Assembly (NCBI GenBank): GCA_964523765.1
Contig: CAZFZX010000001.1
Span: 28,332 to 92,331 of the forward strand
Length of the DNA: 64,000 nt
Reading direction: 5' to 3'
Source: an uncultured Enterobacteriaceae bacterium
GTDB lineage: Bacteria > Pseudomonadota > Gammaproteobacteria > Ga0077536
The notes under the pieces were generated by a model. It searched no databases. It worked only from the letters and a program-made list of their open reading frames with translations, and was not told the DNA's origin. A program made the position numbers and the translations under genes. Of this stretch, positions 3,973 through 61,654 are shown in pieces. Each line of letters begins with the position of its first letter. Within the stretch, counting starts at the first letter, position 1.

Positions 3973-4868
3973 TGACGTCCGTAAACGCCGACGCCGGGAT
4001 ATCCACGCTTGATTCGGCGAACTCGCCCGGACGGCTGATCGCCGCGGCACGGGAGTCGAAGTCGATCGGTTCAGCCGACTTGGCTGCGCGGCTACGGCTC
4101 GACGGAAAGATAATCAAAGCACTTGAAAGAGACGACTTCGAGAATTTGCCGTCGCCGACGTTCATCAAAGGTTACATTCGCTCGATTTCGAAGGAGCTCG
4201 GTGTCGATGCGGATCCGATCTTAGAAGCATACGCGGCTCACGGGTCGATCGAGCCGGCTGCGCTTGCCGATTTTTCTTCGCGGGTACCGGAGCAGGTCGG
4301 GATCGATAGCACGATCGTAAAGGTCGTCACCTACGCCCTATCGGCGACGCTAGTCGTTTTGATCGTTTTGTGGTGGCGATCGACCTATCAAAACGGGGGC
4401 ACGACGACGCCTGATGAACTGGAGAAGGTCACCGCTGATCTAGGAAAAGCGGCGCCGCTCCCCTACGCCTATGAAGTGGTAGAACACGATAACAAAGGAT
4501 GGCGCGTCGCCCCGCCCGCCGGGCGTTCTGCGGCCGAGACGGTGGTGCCGGCCGAAATGCCCGCAAACGAAGAGGACCCTCTACTGGTGGCCCGAGCTGG
4601 CGTCGGCGTTCTCCATATTGCTACAGACAGCAAGGCGTGGGTCGAGGTATATAACGGCGCCGGCGACAAACTCTACTATGATATGGTCAGAGTAGACGCC
4701 GCAATCGAAATAACGGGGCACACGGTTTATCGGCTGATCGTCGGCAACTCGGGGTCCGTCACGATACGGCTGAATGGCGACAGCGTCGACCTTGAGCCGC
4801 ACTCATTCCAGGGTGTCGCGCGTCTGGAACTCGAAAGCCCACCGCGAGACGGCCGCTCCGCGCGATGA
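3972..4868 (+). CDS. rodZ: cytoskeleton protein RodZ (HTH + transmembrane segment + C-terminal domain)
   Basis: N-terminal XRE-like HTH (SIGSADLAARLRLDGKIIKALE), a single TM helix (VVTYALSATLVVLIVLWW) and conserved position. Its stop overlaps the hisS start (ATGA). Confidence 0.8.
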   Translation: MTSVNADAGISTLDSANSPGRLIAAARESKSIGSADLAARLRLDGKIIKALERDDFENLPSPTFIKGYIRSISKELGVDADPILEAYAAHGSIEPAALADFSSRVPEQVGIDSTIVKVVTYALSATLVVLIVLWWRSTYQNGGTTTPDELEKVTADLGKAAPLPYAYEVVEHDNKGWRVAPPAGRSAAETVVPAEMPANEEDPLLVARAGVGVLHIATDSKAWVEVYNGAGDKLYYDMVRVDAAIEITGHTVYRLIVGNSGSVTIRLNGDSVDLEPHSFQGVARLELESPPRDGRSAR

Positions 4869-6160
4869 AACTCCAATCCATTAAAGGGATGAATGATATC
4901 GTCCCGCCGATTACTGGTGCCTGGCAGCGAGCCGAAGAATCGCTTCGCGCGATCCTGGACAGCTACGGATACCGCGAGATCCGCCTACCGGTGATGGAGA
5001 ATACCGCCGTCTTCGCGCGCTCCATCGGTGACGTGACGGATATCGTACAAAAGGAAATGTACACGTTTGAGGATCGAAACGGCGACAGCCTAACGCTGCG
5101 CCCCGAGGGAACCGCCGGCTGCGTGCGGGCAGTTCTCCAAAACGGGCTAGTACATCAGCAGTTCCGAAAGCTTTGGTATACGGGACCGATGTTCCGACAC
5201 GAGCGGCCGCAAAAAGGTCGCTCTCGCCAATTCCACCAGATCGGCGTCGAAGTATTCGATATGCCGGGCCCGGACATCGACGCAGAGCTGATAATGATGA
5301 CGGCTCGAATGTGGGCGGCGCTCGAAGTGACAGATCTTCGACTCGAACTCAACACGCTCGGGACAATGGAAAGCCGTGCGAAATACCGAGAAGTCTTGCT
5401 CCGTTACTTTTCCGCCAACCGAGACCAACTGGATCAGGACAGTTTAGTGCGGCTCGACCGTAACCCGATGCGAATACTCGACAGCAAGAATCCGTCGCTT
5501 GCTGACGTAATCCGGGATGCTCCGGTACTTGAGCAGTATTTGGACGGCCCTTCGCGGGCACATTTCGATCGCTTATGCGAAATCTTGACCCGGGCGGGAG
5601 TCGAATTTCAGCTCAACCCACGTCTCGTCCGAGGCCTCGACTACTATTCCAACACCGTTTTCGAATGGGTGACCGAACGGCTAGGCGCTCAGGGAACGGT
5701 CTGCGCCGGCGGCCGATATGACGGGTTGGTCGAGTTATTGGGCGGTAAGTCGACACCCGCGATCGGTTTCGCTATGGGTCTGGAACGACTCATAGAGCTA
5801 GCCTGGAAGCGGCTTGACGAAGCGGATGACCCAGGCGCAGACGTTTACATTATCTCTACTCACGCCGACTATTGTGTGGACGTTTTGCTCTTGGCCGAGT
5901 CGATTCGGAACGCCATGGGTAATCGGCGTGTGTTGTGCCATTTCGGTGGCGGAAGTATGAAGTCGCAAATGAAAAAGGCGGATCGCGCCGGCGCACAACT
6001 CGCGTTGATCATCGGCGAACGGGAACATCTCGACGGGACTGTGACGATTAAACCCCTGCGCGGCCAAAGCGACCAAGTTACCGTGGCGCGCGACACAGGC
6101 GTCACCACCGTATGCGATTTGCTCTCGGCTCAGCACGGGAACGGTCGGATCACGGTCTGA
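4865..6160 (+). CDS. hisS: histidine--tRNA ligase
   Basis: MKLQSIKGMNDIVP...YGYREIRLPV class II aaRS motifs; 431 aa. Confidence 0.95.
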   Translation: MKLQSIKGMNDIVPPITGAWQRAEESLRAILDSYGYREIRLPVMENTAVFARSIGDVTDIVQKEMYTFEDRNGDSLTLRPEGTAGCVRAVLQNGLVHQQFRKLWYTGPMFRHERPQKGRSRQFHQIGVEVFDMPGPDIDAELIMMTARMWAALEVTDLRLELNTLGTMESRAKYREVLLRYFSANRDQLDQDSLVRLDRNPMRILDSKNPSLADVIRDAPVLEQYLDGPSRAHFDRLCEILTRAGVEFQLNPRLVRGLDYYSNTVFEWVTERLGAQGTVCAGGRYDGLVELLGGKSTPAIGFAMGLERLIELAWKRLDEADDPGADVYIISTHADYCVDVLLLAESIRNAMGNRRVLCHFGGGSMKSQMKKADRAGAQLALIIGEREHLDGTVTIKPLRGQSDQVTVARDTGVTTVCDLLSAQHGNGRITV

Positions 6161-6447
6161 ATCGGTTCCATGCGGTGGGCCGCTAGCGGCTAATGAGCCG
6201 AGACTTCTGGCGAACTTTATGGGACGGGGACGGACAAATCTGGAGGCAGAACTGCAGTTCGTGGAACCGTCAGAGGTTCCCGGCATCGTGAGATTCCGGG
6301 TCGAGAGCATTGTCCGCTATAATGCCGCGCTTCGCGCCGGACGGAGCGAACGCTCGCTGGCCGATCGCGAATCCGAGCGCGGGAACCACGACGCCGAGCC
6401 GAAAACCTTGACCGCGAGCGGCGCATGAAACAGATACCGGGCGCGTC

Positions 6448-7122: not shown

Positions 7123-8307
7123 ATGAAATCGTTACGCGTAACTCTTGCGCTAGCCGCGCTTGGACTCGGTGCCTGCACAGCCGTGACCTCGGTCACGGAT
7201 TCTGTTAGCGACCTCGTTGCGGGAGAACAAGACAATTCGATTCCGCCAACCGAACTGATCAAGTTCGAACCAACCATCGACGTGCAAAAAATCTGGTCCG
7301 GACGGTTCGGTAAAGGTGTCGACAACCTCTTTATTCAACTGATTCCAGCGCCCTACAAAGAGGCCATATACACTGCTGACCGCGACGGTCGCATGATAGC
7401 GCTGAGCGCCGCGACGGGAGAGGAGCTATGGACCGAGCGCGGCAAGAAGCTGCGGATCTCGGGGGGACCGGGCGCCGGCGACGGACTCGTATTCGCGGGA
7501 ACCTCCGATGCCGAAGTCGTGGCGCGAGATGCCGAATCCGGTGAAGAAAAGTGGATCGTGCAGGTGTCGAGTGAGGTGCTCGCGCCGCCGCGCGCTGCGG
7601 GTGGCACTGTCGTTGTTCGGACCGGCGACGGAAAATTGTTCGGTCTGGATTCCGAAACCGGCAAGAGGAAGTGGGTATACGATCGAACGATCCCTGTACT
7701 GACTTTACGGGGGACTAGCGCGCCGGTCATTTACGGTGGGATCGTTATCGCGGGATTCGATAACGGAAGGCTTGTAGCCCTCGATTTAGCGACCGGGAAA
7801 CAGGAATGGGAAACGCGCCTAGCCGTACCGACCGGGCGGTCGGACCTCGAACGTATGGTCGACGTAGACGCAGAACCGACCATTGCCGATGACACGGCCT
7901 ATGTCGCTAGTTTTCAGGCGAACGTCGCGGCCGTATCCATTGTCAACGGGCAGTTAGAATGGACGCGCAAGATCTCTTCCTACTCGAATTTGGCCGTCGA
8001 CGAATCCCGGGTCTACGTGACCGACGAACTTGGAAACGTCTGGGCACTCGACCGCGACACGGGGACGTCAATTTGGAAGCAGGAAGGACTGAAGGCACGC
8101 CGAGTGACCGGGCCTGCCGTCGTCGGTGATTATGTGGTAGTCGGCGATTTTGAAGGATATTTGCACTGGATAGACCGTGAGACCGGGGATTTTGTCCATC
8201 GTCTTCGTCTCGACGACGAACGCATTCTGGTTCCGTGCCGCAGAATCGATGACATATTGCTGGCGTTCAGTTCATCCGGGGTTCTAGCCGCATTCAGGCC
8301 TGAATAG
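7123..8307 (+). CDS. bamB: outer membrane protein assembly factor BamB (PQQ-like beta-propeller lipoprotein)
   Basis: Lipobox ALGLGACT, repeated PQQ-like WG/DG blades, and a position immediately upstream of der. Confidence 0.9.
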   Translation: MKSLRVTLALAALGLGACTAVTSVTDSVSDLVAGEQDNSIPPTELIKFEPTIDVQKIWSGRFGKGVDNLFIQLIPAPYKEAIYTADRDGRMIALSAATGEELWTERGKKLRISGGPGAGDGLVFAGTSDAEVVARDAESGEEKWIVQVSSEVLAPPRAAGGTVVVRTGDGKLFGLDSETGKRKWVYDRTIPVLTLRGTSAPVIYGGIVIAGFDNGRLVALDLATGKQEWETRLAVPTGRSDLERMVDVDAEPTIADDTAYVASFQANVAAVSIVNGQLEWTRKISSYSNLAVDESRVYVTDELGNVWALDRDTGTSIWKQEGLKARRVTGPAVVGDYVVVGDFEGYLHWIDRETGDFVHRLRLDDERILVPCRRIDDILLAFSSSGVLAAFRPE

Positions 8308-8334
8308 AAGACTCCGCACCCCGCTCGGCCGCTT

Positions 8335-8500
8335 CTAGTGTGCTGTCCCACAATAAACTTCAATAAGTCGCGCCGGATTTTTTGTCACTGGCAAGGCGCG
8401 AGGACGACGCGTAGCGGGCTCTACACGAGGACGAGTAACGCAGCCAGGGGCGAAAAAGACCAGCGAATTATGAACGTTTATTGTGGGACAGGGCACTAGT
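8335..8500. repeat. 166-bp segment bounded by a 24-bp inverted repeat (2 mismatches) in the bamB-der spacer
   Basis: CTAGTGTGCTGTCCCACAATAAAC (8335-8358) versus GTTTATTGTGGGACAGGGCACTAG (8476-8499). A 16-bp core, CTGTCCCACAATAAAC / GTTTATTGTGGGACAG, is a perfect reverse complement. Confidence 0.7.
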
Positions 8501-8513
8501 AACAGCGACTTCA

Positions 8514-9923
8514 ATGGACGGTTATACCAAACCTGTGCTCGCCATCCTGGGACGACCCAACGTCGGGAAATCAACCCTTTTCAACCGACTAACCAAGACT
8601 CGCGACGCTCTCGTCGCCGATGTACCGGGCGTTACGCGCGACGTCAATGTGGGTGTCGGTAGAGTCGGCGACGCCGCTTATCTCGTCGCTGACACGGGCG
8701 GTATTGATAATGCCGCTAAAGGAAACATCGGCGCCCAGGTTACCGAACAGACGCTCAACACGCTAGCCGAATGCGATGCGTTGTTATTGGTGGTCGACGC
8801 TAGGGACGGCCTGAGCGGCGAGGACGAAGCTATCGGCGAAGCCATCAGAAAAATGAGTATCCCAGTTTACCTCGTCGTAAATAAGGTCGACGACGAGAAC
8901 TTGGAACTCGCCAGTGTCGAATTCAACAGGATGGGACTCGGCGAGCCTATCCTCATCGCGGCGCTCTCGGGCAAAGGCGTACACGACCTGATTGCACGCG
9001 TGACCTCAGGTTGGGTAACCGAGGAAGCCCACCCGCTGGACGCCGAAGGAACCCGTATCCGCGTCGCGATCGTCGGCCGGCCGAACGTTGGGAAGTCCAC
9101 GCTCGTTAATCGCATGATCGGCGAAGAGAGAATGATAACAGCCGACTTCCCGGGCACCACGCGCGACAGCGTGGCCATCGACTTCGACCGTCGCGGGCAG
9201 CGCTTCAAGCTGATAGATACCGCAGGGTTGCGCCGTCGTAGCAGGGTCAGCGATACGGTCGAAAAATTTAGTGCCGTAAAAGCATTGCAAGCCATCGATT
9301 TGGCCGCCGTGATCGTCCTCGTGCTCGATGCGCAAGACGCCGTTACTGACCAAGACGCACACTTGTTGGGCCTAGTTCTCGAAAGTGGGCGTTCGGTAGT
9401 CATTGCGGTAAACAAGTGGGACGGGCTTAGCCAGGAAAAGCGCGACCAGATACGGCGCGAACTCGATCGCAAGCTAAAATTCATCGAGTACGCCGAACGC
9501 ACTTTCATTTCGGCATTGCACGGTACCGCCGTTGGCACGCTATTTGCGAATATCGAAAAAGCCTGGCGGTCGTCTCAGCTTACGGTCAGGACAAACATCG
9601 TCACGGAGATCCTTCAAAGCGCCGTTGCGGCGCATCCGCCTCCTCTTATTCGCGGCCGGCGGGTGAAACTTCGATACGCTCATTTTGGCGGCCGGAACCC
9701 ACCGACCATCGTCATTCATGGGAATCAGACGAAATCGCTACCGGCCGCGTACCAGCGCTACCTGGAGAACTTTTTTCGAAAGGCCTTCAAGCTCGTTGGA
9801 ACGCCCGTTCGCATGGAATTCAAACAGGGCGGTAACCCCTATGCCGACAAGCGCAACCCGCTGACGCCGAGACAAGTAAAGCGAAAGCGCCGAATGATGA
9901 AACACGTCAAACAGCGGCATTGA
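8514..9923 (+). CDS. der: ribosome biogenesis GTPase Der (EngA), tandem GTPase domains
   Basis: Two G domains (GRPNVGKST ... DTGG and GRPNVGKSTLVN ... DTAG) and a KH-like C-terminus. The first ATG (MDGYTKPVLAILGRPNVGKS) is at 8514; the track ORF starts at a TTG at 8481. Confidence 0.95.
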   Translation: MDGYTKPVLAILGRPNVGKSTLFNRLTKTRDALVADVPGVTRDVNVGVGRVGDAAYLVADTGGIDNAAKGNIGAQVTEQTLNTLAECDALLLVVDARDGLSGEDEAIGEAIRKMSIPVYLVVNKVDDENLELASVEFNRMGLGEPILIAALSGKGVHDLIARVTSGWVTEEAHPLDAEGTRIRVAIVGRPNVGKSTLVNRMIGEERMITADFPGTTRDSVAIDFDRRGQRFKLIDTAGLRRRSRVSDTVEKFSAVKALQAIDLAAVIVLVLDAQDAVTDQDAHLLGLVLESGRSVVIAVNKWDGLSQEKRDQIRRELDRKLKFIEYAERTFISALHGTAVGTLFANIEKAWRSSQLTVRTNIVTEILQSAVAAHPPPLIRGRRVKLRYAHFGGRNPPTIVIHGNQTKSLPAAYQRYLENFFRKAFKLVGTPVRMEFKQGGNPYADKRNPLTPRQVKRKRRMMKHVKQRH

Positions 9924-28777: not shown

Positions 28778-29417
28778 AGGTTTCGAATTTCTTCAGCACT
28801 TCTCGCATTTGTTGTTCATCCAGGATCACTGGGTCGCCTTGCTGCTTAGCGATGCAATACTGCTTTGCCAATTCTTCGACCTCGATCGCCAACCTTACGG
28901 CGGCGGTCGGCGTCGCACCCAGAGCTAACGCGCCGTGATTTGCGAGCAAACAAGCTCGTCGCCCGTTGAGCGCGGACACCGCGTGGTCCGATAGCTCCTG
29001 CGTTCCGAACGTAGCATAGGGCGCGCAGGGGATCGAATCACCACCCGCTATCGCGACCATATAGTGGAACGCGGGCAGGGACTTTCCCGTACACGCGAGC
29101 GCCGTCGCGTAGCTCGAGTGGGTATGGACGATCGCACGGATTTCCGGCCGGGCGCGGTAGATGCCCTGATGCATCCGCCATTCCGACGACGGCCGCGAGG
29201 TCGGCTCCGGCTCGGGGTTGCGAAGCGACATCGCGACGCACGATTCGATCGTCAACGCGCCCGGCAAAACGCCGGTAGGAGTGATCCAGTAATTTTCCGG
29301 GCCGGCGCGGCAGCTTGCGTTCCCTGCACTCCCGGTATTCAAACCCGCGGCATCGAGATATCGCATTGTCCGCACGAGCTCGGCCACCGGTTCGGCGTTG
29401 AGTTCAGTCGGTTTCAT
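28767..29417 (-). CDS. class II aldolase/adducin family protein (fuculose-phosphate aldolase / Ru5P-4-epimerase-like)
   Basis: LNTGSAGNASCR and AIVHTHSSYATALAC Zn-binding His motifs of class II aldolases. The start codon at 29417 directly abuts the terminal inverted repeat of the repeat element. Confidence 0.85.
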   Translation of the reverse strand: MKPTELNAEPVAELVRTMRYLDAAGLNTGSAGNASCRAGPENYWITPTGVLPGALTIESCVAMSLRNPEPEPTSRPSSEWRMHQGIYRARPEIRAIVHTHSSYATALACTGKSLPAFHYMVAIAGGDSIPCAPYATFGTQELSDHAVSALNGRRACLLANHGALALGATPTAAVRLAIEVEELAKQYCIAKQQGDPVILDEQQMREVLKKFETYGQ

Positions 29418-29571
29418 CTAAAGAATCTCTGATTCATTCTGAGACAGTCGAGTTGCGGCCCGAAACTGCTCAGGTCAAGGCGCGGCGCGGAGACGATAGC
29501 GCCGCAACGCGGACCTGGACGATTTTGGGCGCAAGGCGACATTCCATGAATTGATCAGAGGTTCCCTAAGA
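29418..29571. repeat. copy A of a MITE/REP-like element with ~30-bp terminal inverted repeats; it fills the entire ilvA-aldolase spacer
   Basis: Left end CTAAAGAATCTCTGATTCATTCTGAGACAGTCG and right end CGACATTCCATGAATTGATCAGAGGTTCCCTAAG are inverted repeats. An internal GTTGCGGC...GCCGCAAC stem is present. About 80-85% identical to the 46626-46796 copy. Confidence 0.8.
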
Positions 29572-31086
29572 CTAGCTCAGGAATAACTCGTAAGCGGGAT
29601 TATCGTGTTCTTCCACGTATTCCATGTTCAGATCGGCCAGAAACGCTTGGAATTCCGCACGATCGGCCGGCGGGATCTGGATCCCCATCAAGACGCGCCC
29701 GTAGGCGGCGCCGTGATTGCGATAATGGAACAAGCTGATATTCCAGCGCCCGCCGATCTGGGTCAAGAAATGCAATAACGCGCCCGGCCGTTCCGGAAAT
29801 TCGAACCGCAGCAGCCGCTCGTTCGATATCCCGCCGGCGTGCCCTCCAACCATGTAACGGACATGCATCTTAGCCAGCTCGTTCGCCGAAATGTCGATGA
29901 CCTTGAAACCTTTTTCCTCCAGATTCTCCATCAAGGCTGCTTTTTCGACGTCACCGTGCCGTAGTCGGATGCCCGCGAAGACCACTGCGTTGTCGTGATC
30001 GGAATATCGATAATTGAATTCAGTAATTGCGCGCGCTCCCAGCGCGTGGCAGAAGTGTCGAAAGCTGCCCGGCCGTTCCGGAATGGTGGTTGCGATCAGG
30101 GCCTCACGGTGCTCGCCGAGCGCCGCAAGCTCCGCGATGTGTCGCAACCGGTCGAAGTTCACATTAGCGCCACTGAAGATGGCGACCACGTCGAGTCCGG
30201 AGGCGGACTCCCGTTTCACCCATTGTTTCAGGCCGGCAAGCGCGAGCGCCCCCGCCGGTTCGGCGATCGCGCGAGTATCTTCGAAAATATCCTTAACGGC
30301 GGCACAGATTTCATCGATATTCACGGTAAGTATTTCGTCGACGCAACGCTCCGCGACTCGGAACGTTTCCTCTCCGACCTGCCGAACAGCAGCACCGTCA
30401 GCGAATATGCCGACGCGTTCGAGCGTCACTCGTTTGCCGGCCGCAAGCGCCGACTTCATACTCGCGGCTTCTTCGGCTTCGACCCCGATGATCCGGATCG
30501 ACGGCTCCAGTGCTTTGACATAGGCACCAATCCCGGCGATCAAACCGCCACCGCCGACCGGGACGAATATCGCGTCGATACGGCCCGGATGTTGGCGCAG
30601 GATTTCCATGCCCACGGTCCCCTGCCCGGCGATTACCAACGGGTGATCGTAGGGCGGAATGTAAGTCGAACCGGTTTTCTTGGCGATCACGTGCGCGTGT
30701 TCGCTCGCTTCATCGTAGGTGTTCCCGTGCAGGACGATATCCGCGCCCAGCCGCCGGACGGAAACAATCTTGATCTCAGGGGTAGTTTTCGGCATCACTA
30801 TCGTCGCGCCGACCTGCAACTTCGCAGCGGCCATGGCGACACCTTGTGCGTGATTGCCGGCCGACGCCGTAATTACGCCTTTTTCGCGCTCCGCCTGCGA
30901 AAGTCTTACCATTAGATTGTAGGCGCCGCGGATCTTGTAGGAGAAAACGGGCTGCATGTCCTCCCGCTTTATCCAAACGGCATTGTCAAGACGCCGGCTC
31001 AGCTCCGGAGCGGCCTCCAGCGGCGTTTCGCGGGCGATATCATAGACCGGAGCCTTGAGGATCATCTTTAGGTAATCGTCGAGCAT
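29572..31086 (-). CDS. ilvA: threonine dehydratase, biosynthetic (PLP enzyme with two ACT-like regulatory domains)
   Basis: PVFSYKIRGAYN PLP-lysine motif, GGGGLIAG loop, and a 504 aa length with a C-terminal regulatory domain duplication. Confidence 0.95.
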   Translation of the reverse strand: MLDDYLKMILKAPVYDIARETPLEAAPELSRRLDNAVWIKREDMQPVFSYKIRGAYNLMVRLSQAEREKGVITASAGNHAQGVAMAAAKLQVGATIVMPKTTPEIKIVSVRRLGADIVLHGNTYDEASEHAHVIAKKTGSTYIPPYDHPLVIAGQGTVGMEILRQHPGRIDAIFVPVGGGGLIAGIGAYVKALEPSIRIIGVEAEEAASMKSALAAGKRVTLERVGIFADGAAVRQVGEETFRVAERCVDEILTVNIDEICAAVKDIFEDTRAIAEPAGALALAGLKQWVKRESASGLDVVAIFSGANVNFDRLRHIAELAALGEHREALIATTIPERPGSFRHFCHALGARAITEFNYRYSDHDNAVVFAGIRLRHGDVEKAALMENLEEKGFKVIDISANELAKMHVRYMVGGHAGGISNERLLRFEFPERPGALLHFLTQIGGRWNISLFHYRNHGAAYGRVLMGIQIPPADRAEFQAFLADLNMEYVEEHDNPAYELFLS

Positions 31087-42243: not shown

Positions 42244-42704
42244 GTTGGAACCTTGGATACTACTTTCGAGGTGTCGATGGGCGATCTCGCCGCCAAAGGA
42301 ACTGTCCAGCCACGTGACAAGACGCCGATCCTCCCTGCCTCACATTGTTCGCACCCCATAAGGGCCTCGACATTGCGCGGGTCGACGCGTAGCCACGCTC
42401 GGTCCAGATGACGGCTATGGTATGCGGGCGATCCGGCCCGAAGAGTGTAGCAAAATTGCCATTGCCGCGGCTGCGCTAACGCGATTGTCGGGCGTAGTCA
42501 CCAGAAGCGGTCTCCAAATTATCCACGACGGCGCCGGGAGTCGTTTTTTCGCGATTCAAGGCGACACCGCCATGGTTGACCGGGTGTCAATGAGTGACGA
42601 ACAACGCCCTGGTGCAAAAAATGGCCCAGGGCCGCATGGGTTGTGCCCCCGGACAATTGTGGACGGCAACTCGACTGTCCCCGAATGAATCAGAGGTTCC
42701 CTAA
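42244..42704. repeat. copy C: long or composite, diverged member filling the ptsI-mgtE spacer
   Basis: Clear right terminus CGACTGTCCCCGAATGAATCAGAGGTTCCCTAA (42672-42704), whose CTA is the ptsI stop codon. TIR-like left end GTTGGAACCTTGGAT...GGTGTCG directly abuts the mgtE start codon. An internal segment CGATTCAAGGCGACACCGCCATGGTTGACC matches the element core GCGCAAGGCGACATTCCATGAATTGATC. Confidence 0.55.
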
Positions 42705-46163: not shown

Positions 46164-46493
46164 CTAGTCGCCTCCTTGTTGCTGTTTCATACCACCGTGT
46201 CGTTTGTGATGGTCGGTGACCTTTTCCTTGTGCTTGCGTACCTGCCGGTCTAGCTTATCGATCATAGCGTCGATCGCCGCGTACATGTCCTCATGTTCGC
46301 TCGCCGCATGAATTCTGCTCCCACTGATTTGCAGGGTCGTTTCCGCCTTATGTCTTTGCTTCTCTACGTCCAAAACGACGTGTGCGTCGATTACTTGATC
46401 AAAATGCCGTTTCACCCGCACCATCTTGGTGTTGATGTACTCTTTCAACGATTCCGAAATTTCGACGTGATGTCCGGATATACTGAGTCGCAT
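46164..46493 (-). CDS. hpf: ribosome hibernation promoting factor (sigma-54 modulation protein)
   Basis: MRLSISGHHVEISESLKEY aligns with HPF N-termini. GGAGG SD lies 5 nt before the ATG at 46493; the track ORF extends to 46565. Confidence 0.9.
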   Translation of the reverse strand: MRLSISGHHVEISESLKEYINTKMVRVKRHFDQVIDAHVVLDVEKQRHKAETTLQISGSRIHAASEHEDMYAAIDAMIDKLDRQVRKHKEKVTDHHKRHGGMKQQQGGD

Positions 46494-46625
46494 TGCAGCC
46501 TCCGCTACTGATTTTGAAGCGGTCGAAACTACTCGCGCCGCTCCTGGATCCAAATTATAGGGCATCTCTATTAAAAGCTATCTAATGGCCCGGAATCGTA
46601 CTGATGCGACGCGGCAAATATACGA

Positions 46626-46796
46626 ATTAGGGGTTTCTTATTCACTCTGGGACGGTCGGGTTGCCGGCTAAAATTGTTCAGGTCAAAGCGCGGCGCGCAG
46701 GTAATAGCCCCAGGACTATTGGCAAGCGCCGCAACGCAGACCGGGCGATTTTAGGCGCAAGGCGAGCTTCCATGAATTGATCAGAGGTTCCTTAGG
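46626..46796. repeat. copy B of the same TIR-bounded element (rpoN-hpf spacer)
   Basis: Aligns end to end with copy A, with a ~19-bp internal insertion. Right terminus ...CCATGAATTGATCAGAGGTTCCTTAGG. Confidence 0.8.
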
Positions 46797-46834
46797 TCAC
46801 TCGGAGCCTGTAAACGGTTAAGCGAAGGCGAAAG

Positions 46835-61485: not shown

Positions 61486-61654
61486 CCCAGGGGAACCTCC
61501 GATTTATTCGTGGAACGTCGCCTCGCGCCCAAAACCTTTCAGTCTGCGTTGCGTGGCGGCCTATAGTCATAGTCATTACCCCCGCGCCCCGCCTCGGCCT
61601 GAACGATTTTGGCCGGTAAATCGACTGTCCAAGAACAAATCACGGGTTCCTTAG
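61486..61654. repeat. copy D of the element, inverted relative to A-C (tolR-tolA spacer inside the tolQRAB operon)
   Basis: CCCAGGGGAACCTCCGATTTATTCGTGGAACGTCGCC ... CGACTGTCCAAGAACAAATCACGGGTTCCTTAG aligns over its whole length with the reverse complement of copy A. The terminal CCTTAG contains the tolR TAA stop codon. Confidence 0.75.

Follow-up and report, generated by a model that had tools for sequence, protein, structure and literature searches.

A 64-kb stretch of DNA from an uncultured Enterobacteriaceae bacterium of the gammaproteobacterial lineage Ga0077536 (64,000 nucleotides; GenBank assembly GCA_964523765.1, contig CAZFZX010000001.1, positions 28,332 to 92,331 of the forward strand), hereafter called the window, carries copies of a short palindromic repeat in the spacers between operon genes. 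[quoted passage not shown] The copies are homologous to each other, dispersed and palindromic, and one of the occupied sites is empty in relatives. They are flanked by the tetranucleotide 5'-YTAR-3', these flanks overlap stop codons, and remnants of IS5-like insertion sequences (ISs) with matching ends are present on the same contigs.

In total, the window contains three full copies and two fragments of the element, which are given here together with a doubtful further terminus:

29418 to 29569, plus strand: copy A, with the core at 29422-29565 and the 4-bp direct repeats CTAA at 29418-29421 and 29566-29569.
46627 to 46795, plus strand: copy B, in the rpoN–hpf spacer, with the repeats TTAG at 46627-46630 and 46792-46795.
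61488 to 61654, minus strand: copy C, between tolR and tolA; the minus strand carries the canonical form.
42648 to 42704, minus strand: solo terminal fragment of about 55 nt, an inverted canonical left arm with 92-96% identity over 51 nt to the canonical arms.
about 6232 to 6283, plus strand: degenerate right-terminus remnant with the exact 12-mer TCAGAGGTTCCC, in the spacer after the open reading frame (ORF) 4865-6160.
42244 to 42280, no strand assigned: doubtful second terminus by the start codon of mgtE (GTTGGAACCTTGGAT, 10/15 matches to the terminus).

Copies A, B and C are full-length homologues of roughly 150-170 bp according to their alignment and to nhmmer (E 1e-46 to 1e-53), and a 29-nt degenerate terminus pattern matched six times in the window, compared to 0.00 matches expected from dinucleotide shuffles. 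Copy A, which has a 19-nt internal deletion and is 81.8% identical to the family consensus, occupies the entire ilvA–aldolase spacer, as the ATG of the aldolase gene ends at 29417 and the ilvA stop codon lies at 29572-29574. Its left end reads CTAAAGAATCTCTGATTCATTCTGAGACAGTCG, its right end CGACATTCCATGAATTGATCAGAGGTTCCCTAAG and its internal stem GTTGCGGC...GCCGCAAC; these and all other sequences quoted in a preliminary description of the window were found where that description had placed them. Copy B is 86% identical to the consensus, with a degenerate left terminus (GGGGTTTCTTAT where the family has GGAACCTCTGAT). Copy C (77.6% identity) is flanked on one side by TTAG at 61651-61654, which holds the tolR stop codon (TAA, 61651-61653), and on the other side by the degenerate CAGG; it was found in 6/6 same-species contigs shown. 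The flanking CTAA of the solo fragment (42701-42704) likewise contains a stop codon, that of ptsI (TAG, 42701-42703). The remnant at about 6232-6283 was grouped in repeat family D1 with 62% identity over 52 nt, and was detected by nhmmer with an E-value of 0.02 and, in a further search, with 15.2 bits.

The preliminary description had counted four copies, including a longer, diverged one at 42244-42704. Three of these stood as full copies, and the fourth was reduced to the 55-nt terminal fragment: homology is confined to the right 55 nt of the interval, the interior of which also failed to align with the spacers of the relatives L068, L069, L072 and L073. At its other end, the putative terminus at 42244-42280 gave a local alignment score of 14 compared to a mean of 12 for shuffled sequences, 22% of which scored 14 or more, and nhmmer found nothing there. 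Pfam assignments confirmed that the spacers separate co-directional genes, namely ilvA and a class II aldolase gene, rpoN and hpf, tolR and tolA, and ptsI and mgtE, all on the minus strand.

The element is not restricted to the window. A strict terminus pattern matched 60 stretches of JGI/WGS (Joint Genome Institute/whole-genome shotgun) metagenome contigs, mostly of assembly PVBE01, none of which overlaps the window, and an nhmmer search of these metagenome loci yielded 39 distinct copies of full length (about 170 bp), all in different intergenic contexts, with co-directional, convergent and divergent neighbours alike. Further copies, for which the preliminary description had proposed to look, thus exist in number. 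The consensus of the family has 170 bp including the flanking repeats and a G+C content of 55%, and is an imperfect palindrome over nearly its full length. Stop codons interrupt five of its six reading frames and leave one open, and all copies are intergenic. The open frame lies on the complementary strand and runs through all 170 bp; no copy was found inside a gene. The G+C content resembles that of the host, unlike the AT-rich MITEs usually described. The metagenome copies are 71-99% identical to the consensus and those of the window 78-86%, which indicates that the window copies are old. Given one copy per 13-21 kb in the window and about one extra copy per 54 kb in the metagenome loci, the density of one per 13-54 kb would imply on the order of 100 copies per genome, where the preliminary description had expected hundreds.

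Outside these contigs, the strict terminus pattern matched none of 185,579 GTDB species representatives and no viral contig. The consensus had no match in plasmids or phages, nor in 5,426 complete Escherichia coli genomes (blastn, 11-nt words, E<=0.01), and the terminus string retrieved only unrelated primers from the searchable literature. No stretch of the window matched an Rfam family at gathering score, and copy B and the near-consensus copy of locus L022 had no match at E<=1 either. All this agrees with the preliminary description, in which the sequence was not recognised as a described family. The same Rfam scan of the whole 64 kb revealed no tRNA, rRNA, riboswitch or small RNA family, and the region upstream of mgtE likewise gave no hit. 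Only metagenome contigs or contigs of metagenome-assembled genomes (MAGs) with 99.7-100% DNA identity were found to encode proteins identical to those of the window, and all of these contigs carry the same insertions; contigs of the same species belong to MAG GCA_030740575.1 and to the FUCH22 metagenomes; accordingly, no presence/absence polymorphism was seen within the species, as contigs with identical TolR, MgtE, Hpf or aldolase share the same spacers. The closest species representatives, with RapZ proteins 84%, 77% and 76% identical to that of the window, are all named 'Gammaproteobacteria bacterium'. A related palindromic element of 172 bp, with ends reading TTAGGGAACCTCTGAATAAGTCATGG, lies between hpf and ptsN in a MAG that is more distant (L073 5270-5441, contig CAXXLL010000003.1; RapZ 59%), and therefore a wider superfamily extends beyond one species.

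The insertion itself is visible at the ilvA–aldolase junction. In the nearest relatives (L175, L177 and L178; aldolase 73% and 67% identical at the amino acid level), among them the MAG with the 84% identical RapZ, the site is empty and reads CTGAGC-TAA-GCTTAG-ATG, with a gap of 6 nt between stop and start codon. The filled site of the window, read in the direction of the genes, is CTGAGC-TAG-TC-TTAG, followed by an element core of 144 nt starting with GGAACCTC and ending with CAGAGATTCT, and then by TTAG-ATG. The length of the spacer in the relatives had been predicted from the filled site before the comparison was made, and the 6-nt spacer matched this prediction. The rpoN–hpf spacer has 341 nt in the window (46494-46834); at L068 and L069, only about 100-120 nt separate the end of rpoN from the start of the hpf match, and no match to the element was detected. 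Moreover, 50.7 kb of sister-lineage loci contained no copy.

These comparisons bear on the possibility that the repeats are operon-specific regulatory RNA structures, in which case distant relatives should share them at the same spacers, or palindromes of the repetitive extragenic palindrome (REP)/RAYT type that are handled as single-stranded hairpins. The full-length palindrome would suit such a proposal, as would the finding, detailed below, that the same strand folds better in every copy, as if a single strand were the substrate. The opposite of conserved occupancy was found, however: relatives have empty or much shorter spacers at the orthologous positions, the same element occurs at dozens of unrelated loci, its termini are sharp, with a 4-bp direct repeat, and match those of IS5-like ISs, and no Rfam family matches it. 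REP elements are about 20-40 nt long and lack a target duplication. We regard this proposal as highly improbable, as the empty site and the dispersal essentially refute it.

In order to characterize the ends of the element, 38 copies with 76 termini were aligned. Both ends read GGAACCTCTGAT inward, and outermost Y-T-A-R followed by GGAACCTCTGA. At the four flanking positions, the 76 termini have C in 48 and T in 26 cases (position -4), T in 74 (-3), A in 68 (-2), and A in 35 or G in 41 (-1). Conservation ends abruptly outside the Y-T-A-R that precedes GGAACC, with random bases from position -5 outward. The left and right flanking tetranucleotides are identical in 15/29 copies compared to 7.9 in permutations (p=0.003), and the outer pyrimidine agrees in 24/29 and the inner purine in 20/29 copies. 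Such a pattern would be expected from a YTAR duplication of 4 bp with subsequent decay, and not from a duplication of TA only. IS5 is known to duplicate 5'-YTAR-3' (PMC5009759). With dispersal at dozens of intergenic loci, terminal inverted repeats (TIRs), a target-site duplication and an empty ilvA–aldolase site in relatives, the assignment to the MITEs made in the preliminary description held.

Remnants of a candidate parent IS were detected on the metagenome contigs. At L014, L016, L035, L055 and L062, YTAR is followed by an IS end reading GGAACTTCTGAATAAGTCATCGATC and then by an ORF starting with MSKQLTLGEGFEKYAKTTRRGQFLNEMDSIIPW; ends of the form YTAR-GGAACYTCTGAAYAAG and, ahead of an ORF beginning with MSKQLTLGEGFEKYAKTTRRGQFLNEMDSIIPW, YTAR-GGAACTTCTGAATAAGTCATCGA were also recorded. 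In L055 and L062, the IS end directly adjoins a MITE copy and shares the YTAR with it, which suggests that IS and MITE live in the same genome. An internal-deletion derivative of 726 bp at L180 2439-3164 retains both ends (GGAACTTCTGAATAAG and GGAATCTCTGAACAAC), flanked by CTAG and CTAA, and other remnants start with TTAG-GGAGCTTCTGAACAAG, CTAG-GGAACCTCTGCAAAAG or TTAA-GGAACCTCTGCAAAAG. When the remnants were searched by tblastn with E. coli InsH, the transposase of IS5, identities of 45-48% over the N-terminal residues 1-64/69 and of 40% over 113 C-terminal residues were obtained (E 1e-14 to 1e-17 across matches), and many of the transposase fragments are labelled 'IS5 family transposase' or carry PF05598. 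MITE and IS have their outer 11-12 nt in common (GGAACCTCTGA-T), and the L073-type element matches the IS end at 20/22 positions, which is better than the family of the window. From this likeness we infer which transposase mobilises the MITE. Two other candidates were dismissed: the ORFs beside the solo termini, considered as an autonomous partner, are ordinary genes, and a weak InsH match in L018 is DnaE.

A different parentage was considered from the beginning, as the TA flanks had first been read as the mark of an IS630/Tc1-mariner-type MITE similar to Correia or RUP. The element would then be RGGAACC…GGTTCCY, inserted at TA with a preference for YTAR/CTAG and duplicating TA only. TA is indeed the most invariant flanking dinucleotide and is found at the ends of most described bacterial MITEs (PMC2229807), and the empty site, its target being TTAG, is equally compatible with duplications of 2 and of 4 bp. 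Under this model, however, no correlation between the two tetranucleotides is expected, because the target would contribute the outer base and the element the inner one, and yet the tetranucleotides match beyond chance, as described above. In addition, the only ISs found with these termini encode InsH-like proteins of the IS5 family, and no IS630-type transposase was seen. After the tetranucleotide test and the recovery of the IS5-like remnants, the model was downgraded, and we consider it quite unlikely. The same results speak against the label 'Correia-like' that the preliminary description had attached to the element: with its 4-bp YTAR duplication and its GGAAC... ends, it is IS5-like and does not show a TA duplication of the IS630 type.

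The IS5-type reading also offers an explanation for the tight siting of the copies. The DDE transposase of an IS5-family IS would recognise the shared outermost bases GGAACYTCTGA and cut and paste the element, and insertion at 5'-YTAR-3' would duplicate these four bases. YTAR comprises a pyrimidine plus TAA or TAG; as the outer YTAR copy stays with the upstream gene, insertion into Y-TAA or Y-TAG would regenerate the stop codon and leave the protein unchanged. Insertions of this kind would survive selection and hence copies would come to sit tightly between operon genes. In agreement with this, at 14/74 termini an ORF of at least 100 codons has the flanking TAR as its stop codon, compared to 3 and 2 in the other frames (p=4e-4), and in the window this overlap concerns tolR and ptsI. 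Purifying selection together with the YTAR preference is enough to explain the tight intergenic siting.

Among known systems, the closest are bacterial MITEs derived from the IS5 family, i.e. BrickBuilt, MITE293 and MITE700 of Porphyromonas gingivalis and the Neisseria ATR attributed to ISNme1 (PMC4596501). Like the element described here, these are short, non-coding and multicopy. Their TIRs correspond to those of IS5-family ISs of the same genomes, a likeness that the candidate parent IS would extend to the present family, and they were assigned to a parent by TIR identity alone. The ends of ISNme1 are GAGACCTTTGCAAAA, compared to GGAACCTCTGA here, and BrickBuilt has irregular duplications and an internal minisatellite in place of the full-length palindrome, the clean 4-bp YTAR duplication and the uncultured gammaproteobacterial host of the present family. 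E. coli IS5 (IS5A, insH) shares the 4-bp 5'-YTAR-3' target and duplication, and its ends likewise begin with GGAA. The ends of the candidate parent IS continue with GAAYAAG as in E. coli IS5, whose ends are GGAAGGTGCGAAYAAG, and the encoded protein is 40-48% identical to InsH over its surviving parts. IS5, however, is an autonomous element of 1195 bp; the MITE has no transposase and matches IS5 at 9/16 of the first terminal bases.

Correia elements (NEMIS) of Neisseria are MITEs that measure 100-155 bp, have long TIRs, are mostly intergenic and co-transcribed, and form predicted long RNA hairpins that are cleaved by RNase III (PMC2229807). Size, TIRs and location are similar here. As judged from their description, Correia elements differ by their TA duplication and termini, an integration host factor (IHF) site, and promoter elements within the TIRs; the present family has YTAR, no sigma-70-like promoter and an unrelated host. 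The enterobacterial repeats ERIC/IRU (127 bp) and YPAL/RU-2 (168 bp) resemble the family in size, are also imperfect palindromes and occupy the spacers between operon genes. They are co-transcribed with their neighbours, and the effect of ERIC on mRNA stability depends on orientation (PMC2229807, PMC3184786). ERIC ends in TA, and YPAL contains internal repeats and makes duplications that vary from 3 to 26 bp; for the family of the window, an orientation effect is not evident. No sequence match to it was obtained in the E. coli genomes, in which ERIC, REP and IS5 are present, and this speaks against similarity to the enterobacterial repeats ERIC/IRU, RU-3 and REP/BIME. Finally, RUP of Streptococcus pneumoniae, mobilised by IS630-Spn1, is the best-documented case of a bacterial MITE connected to its parent IS by TIR similarity (PMC2229807). 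It tends to insert beside or into other ISs, reminiscent of the copies that abut IS ends in L055 and L062, and differs in its IS630 family, its TA duplication, its length of 107 bp and its Gram-positive host.

The inverted repeats of about 30 bp noted in the preliminary description are present, but the pairing does not stop there and makes nearly the whole element an imperfect palindrome. The folding energies predicted for the mRNA strand are -70 kcal/mol for copy A (z-score -7.4), -49 kcal/mol for copy B (z-score -1.3) and -74.7 kcal/mol for copy C (z-score -4.8). The consensus hairpin comprises 64 pairs, with 92.3% of the alignment cells paired compared to 31-45% in slid controls, and 14 pairs show compensatory changes, with 59 cells changed on both sides. 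Of 500 shuffles, none reached the observed number of both-side-changed cells, percentage of paired cells or covariation score. Most of the both-side changes represent few events that distinguish subfamilies. The canonical strand folds better than its complement in 39/39 copies (means of -85 and -72 kcal/mol).

Judging from the gene layout, the elements would be co-transcribed with the operon genes and, given their predicted folds, they may undergo RNA processing. A long hairpin in a polycistronic mRNA may affect its processing, as has been shown for ERIC, YPAL and Correia (PMC2229807, PMC3184786). These precedents raise the question of whether the MITE was co-opted as an intercistronic RNA module, which might for instance provide a site for RNase III/E, stabilise the mRNA or act as an attenuator. 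In the outward end of the element, CAGAGGTTCCYTAR, a GAGG precedes the junction by about 8 nt, and five copies are followed by a candidate start codon at a distance of 0-11 nt; one may speculate that this GAGG acts as a Shine-Dalgarno-like site. The high predicted stability of the hairpins, the pairing maintained at 92% of the cells, the compensatory changes, the folding still preserved in the old copies A and C, and the presence of the copies in every same-species contig recovered would all be in line with co-option.

The distribution of the copies, however, does not follow transcription. Relative to the gene reading in, 9 copies are in same-sense and 14 in antisense orientation (p=0.40), and at stop-codon junctions the ratio is 6 to 7, i.e. 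without bias in either case. As the strand asymmetry is uncorrelated with the direction of transcription, it provides no evidence of selection at the RNA level. Furthermore, divergent, convergent and co-directional contexts are all occupied, the mRNA strand of copy B folds no better than shuffles, neither a sigma-70-like promoter nor an intrinsic terminator was detected in or around copies A, B and C, and the putative Shine-Dalgarno motif of copy A is mutated to GAGA. The compensatory changes are few, shared by subfamilies and explicable by arm-to-arm correction in a palindrome. Co-option therefore appears unlikely to us; most likely, the elements are passengers that are neutral or nearly so. 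In a more specific version, the MITE would be retained as a 'plug-in intercistronic spacer', which regenerates the stop codon, adds a hairpin with a stem of about 75 bp and presents the outward GAGG; we give this version a slim chance. If it were true, the spacer could uncouple or re-tune translation and mRNA decay of the ilvA–aldolase and tolR–tolA pairs, and the strand-asymmetric G·U design seen in all 39 copies and the compensatory changes in the stem would reflect selection on RNA.

Several observations weigh against the assignment to an IS5-type MITE mobilised by an IS5-family transposase. Protein searches with a padded N-terminal query and a profile query revealed no intact full-length transposase gene with these ends; all 55 protein matches were shorter than 100 amino acids, and the four IS loci inspected all hold truncated or decayed copies. 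The remnants were seen on metagenome contigs, none of them placed in the species of the window itself. Only the outer 11-12 nt are common to MITE and IS, after which the MITE continues with TTCATTC and the IS with ATAAGTC. The flanking tetranucleotides are non-identical in 14/29 copies, which may reflect decay or may speak against a 4-bp duplication, and since YTAR is nearly palindromic, a TA duplication with element ends R…Y remains compatible with the flanks. Lastly, the compensatory changes deep in the stem, which would not be needed for binding of the ends, hint at a constraint on the hairpin or at arm-to-arm correction.

Besides full-length copies, the metagenome loci contain internally deleted mini-variants with about 53-94 bp between the termini (59-100 nt with flanks) and little beyond the two arms. 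They retain the YTAR flanks and have predicted folding energies of -24 to -50 kcal/mol:

L010 3317-3369: mini-variant.
L029 234-297: mini-variant.
L058 944-1007: mini-variant.
L060 1829-1892: mini-variant.
L025 1851-1930: mini-variant.
L039 2155-2234: mini-variant.
L044 6951-7025: mini-variant.
L012 5104-5197: mini-variant.

Back-to-back insertions occur among the metagenome loci as well. At L055 1-340, L062 5181-5485 and L011 1-306, MITE copies are sited exactly at the end of another element and have the YTAR in common with it; the other element is the IS5-like IS or a MITE of a second type, and its end itself recreates a preferred target. Two further repeats were noted in the window:

1376 to 1560: second, unrelated palindromic repeat family, with arms at 1424-1474 and 1479-1529 that are 76% complementary and ends containing GGAACGGT…ACCGTTCC.
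8328 to 8506: inverted repeat with 44-nt arms that are 80% complementary and 91 nt apart.

The repeat at 1376-1560 recurs at L048 6654-6790, L062 5019-5154, L044 13283-13372 and, in internally deleted form, L046 12174-12263. It probably represents a further MITE family that the PVBE01 organism also carries. Together with the mini-variants and the back-to-back insertions, it would fit the usual picture of a MITE-rich genome. The repeat at 8328-8506 spans the end of the spacer that follows ORF 7123-8307 and overlaps, with its right arm, the start listed for ORF 8481-9923; no second copy was found in any metagenome or relative locus examined. In the ptsI–mgtE spacer, a stretch of 44 nt (42500-42543) is 86-87% identical to L010 3706-3749 and L025 1800-1830, near MITE mini-variants, and may be another short repeat. 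Downstream of copy B, the hpf ORF as listed (133 amino acids, start at 46565) is too long; the gene calls of identical contigs give 109 amino acids with the start at 46493. TATAAT and AGGAG motifs are present at 46493-46565, and hpf probably has its own promoter and ribosome-binding site in this segment.

MITEs are a thoroughly known kind of element, and their general understanding is unchanged by the present family. What is new, for an uncultured gammaproteobacterial lineage known only from metagenomes, is this hitherto undescribed MITE family together with one or more sister families that share its ends. Repeats of this type break short-read assemblies, inflate the apparent 'intergenic' length and can be mistaken for regulatory RNAs, and they may be used as strain or lineage markers. 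The feature worth noting is the geometry of the insertion, in which the stop codon is regenerated: the family would provide a clean example of how a YTAR target lets a transposon settle in packed essential operons without damage, the duplicated TAR restoring the stop codon of the upstream gene.

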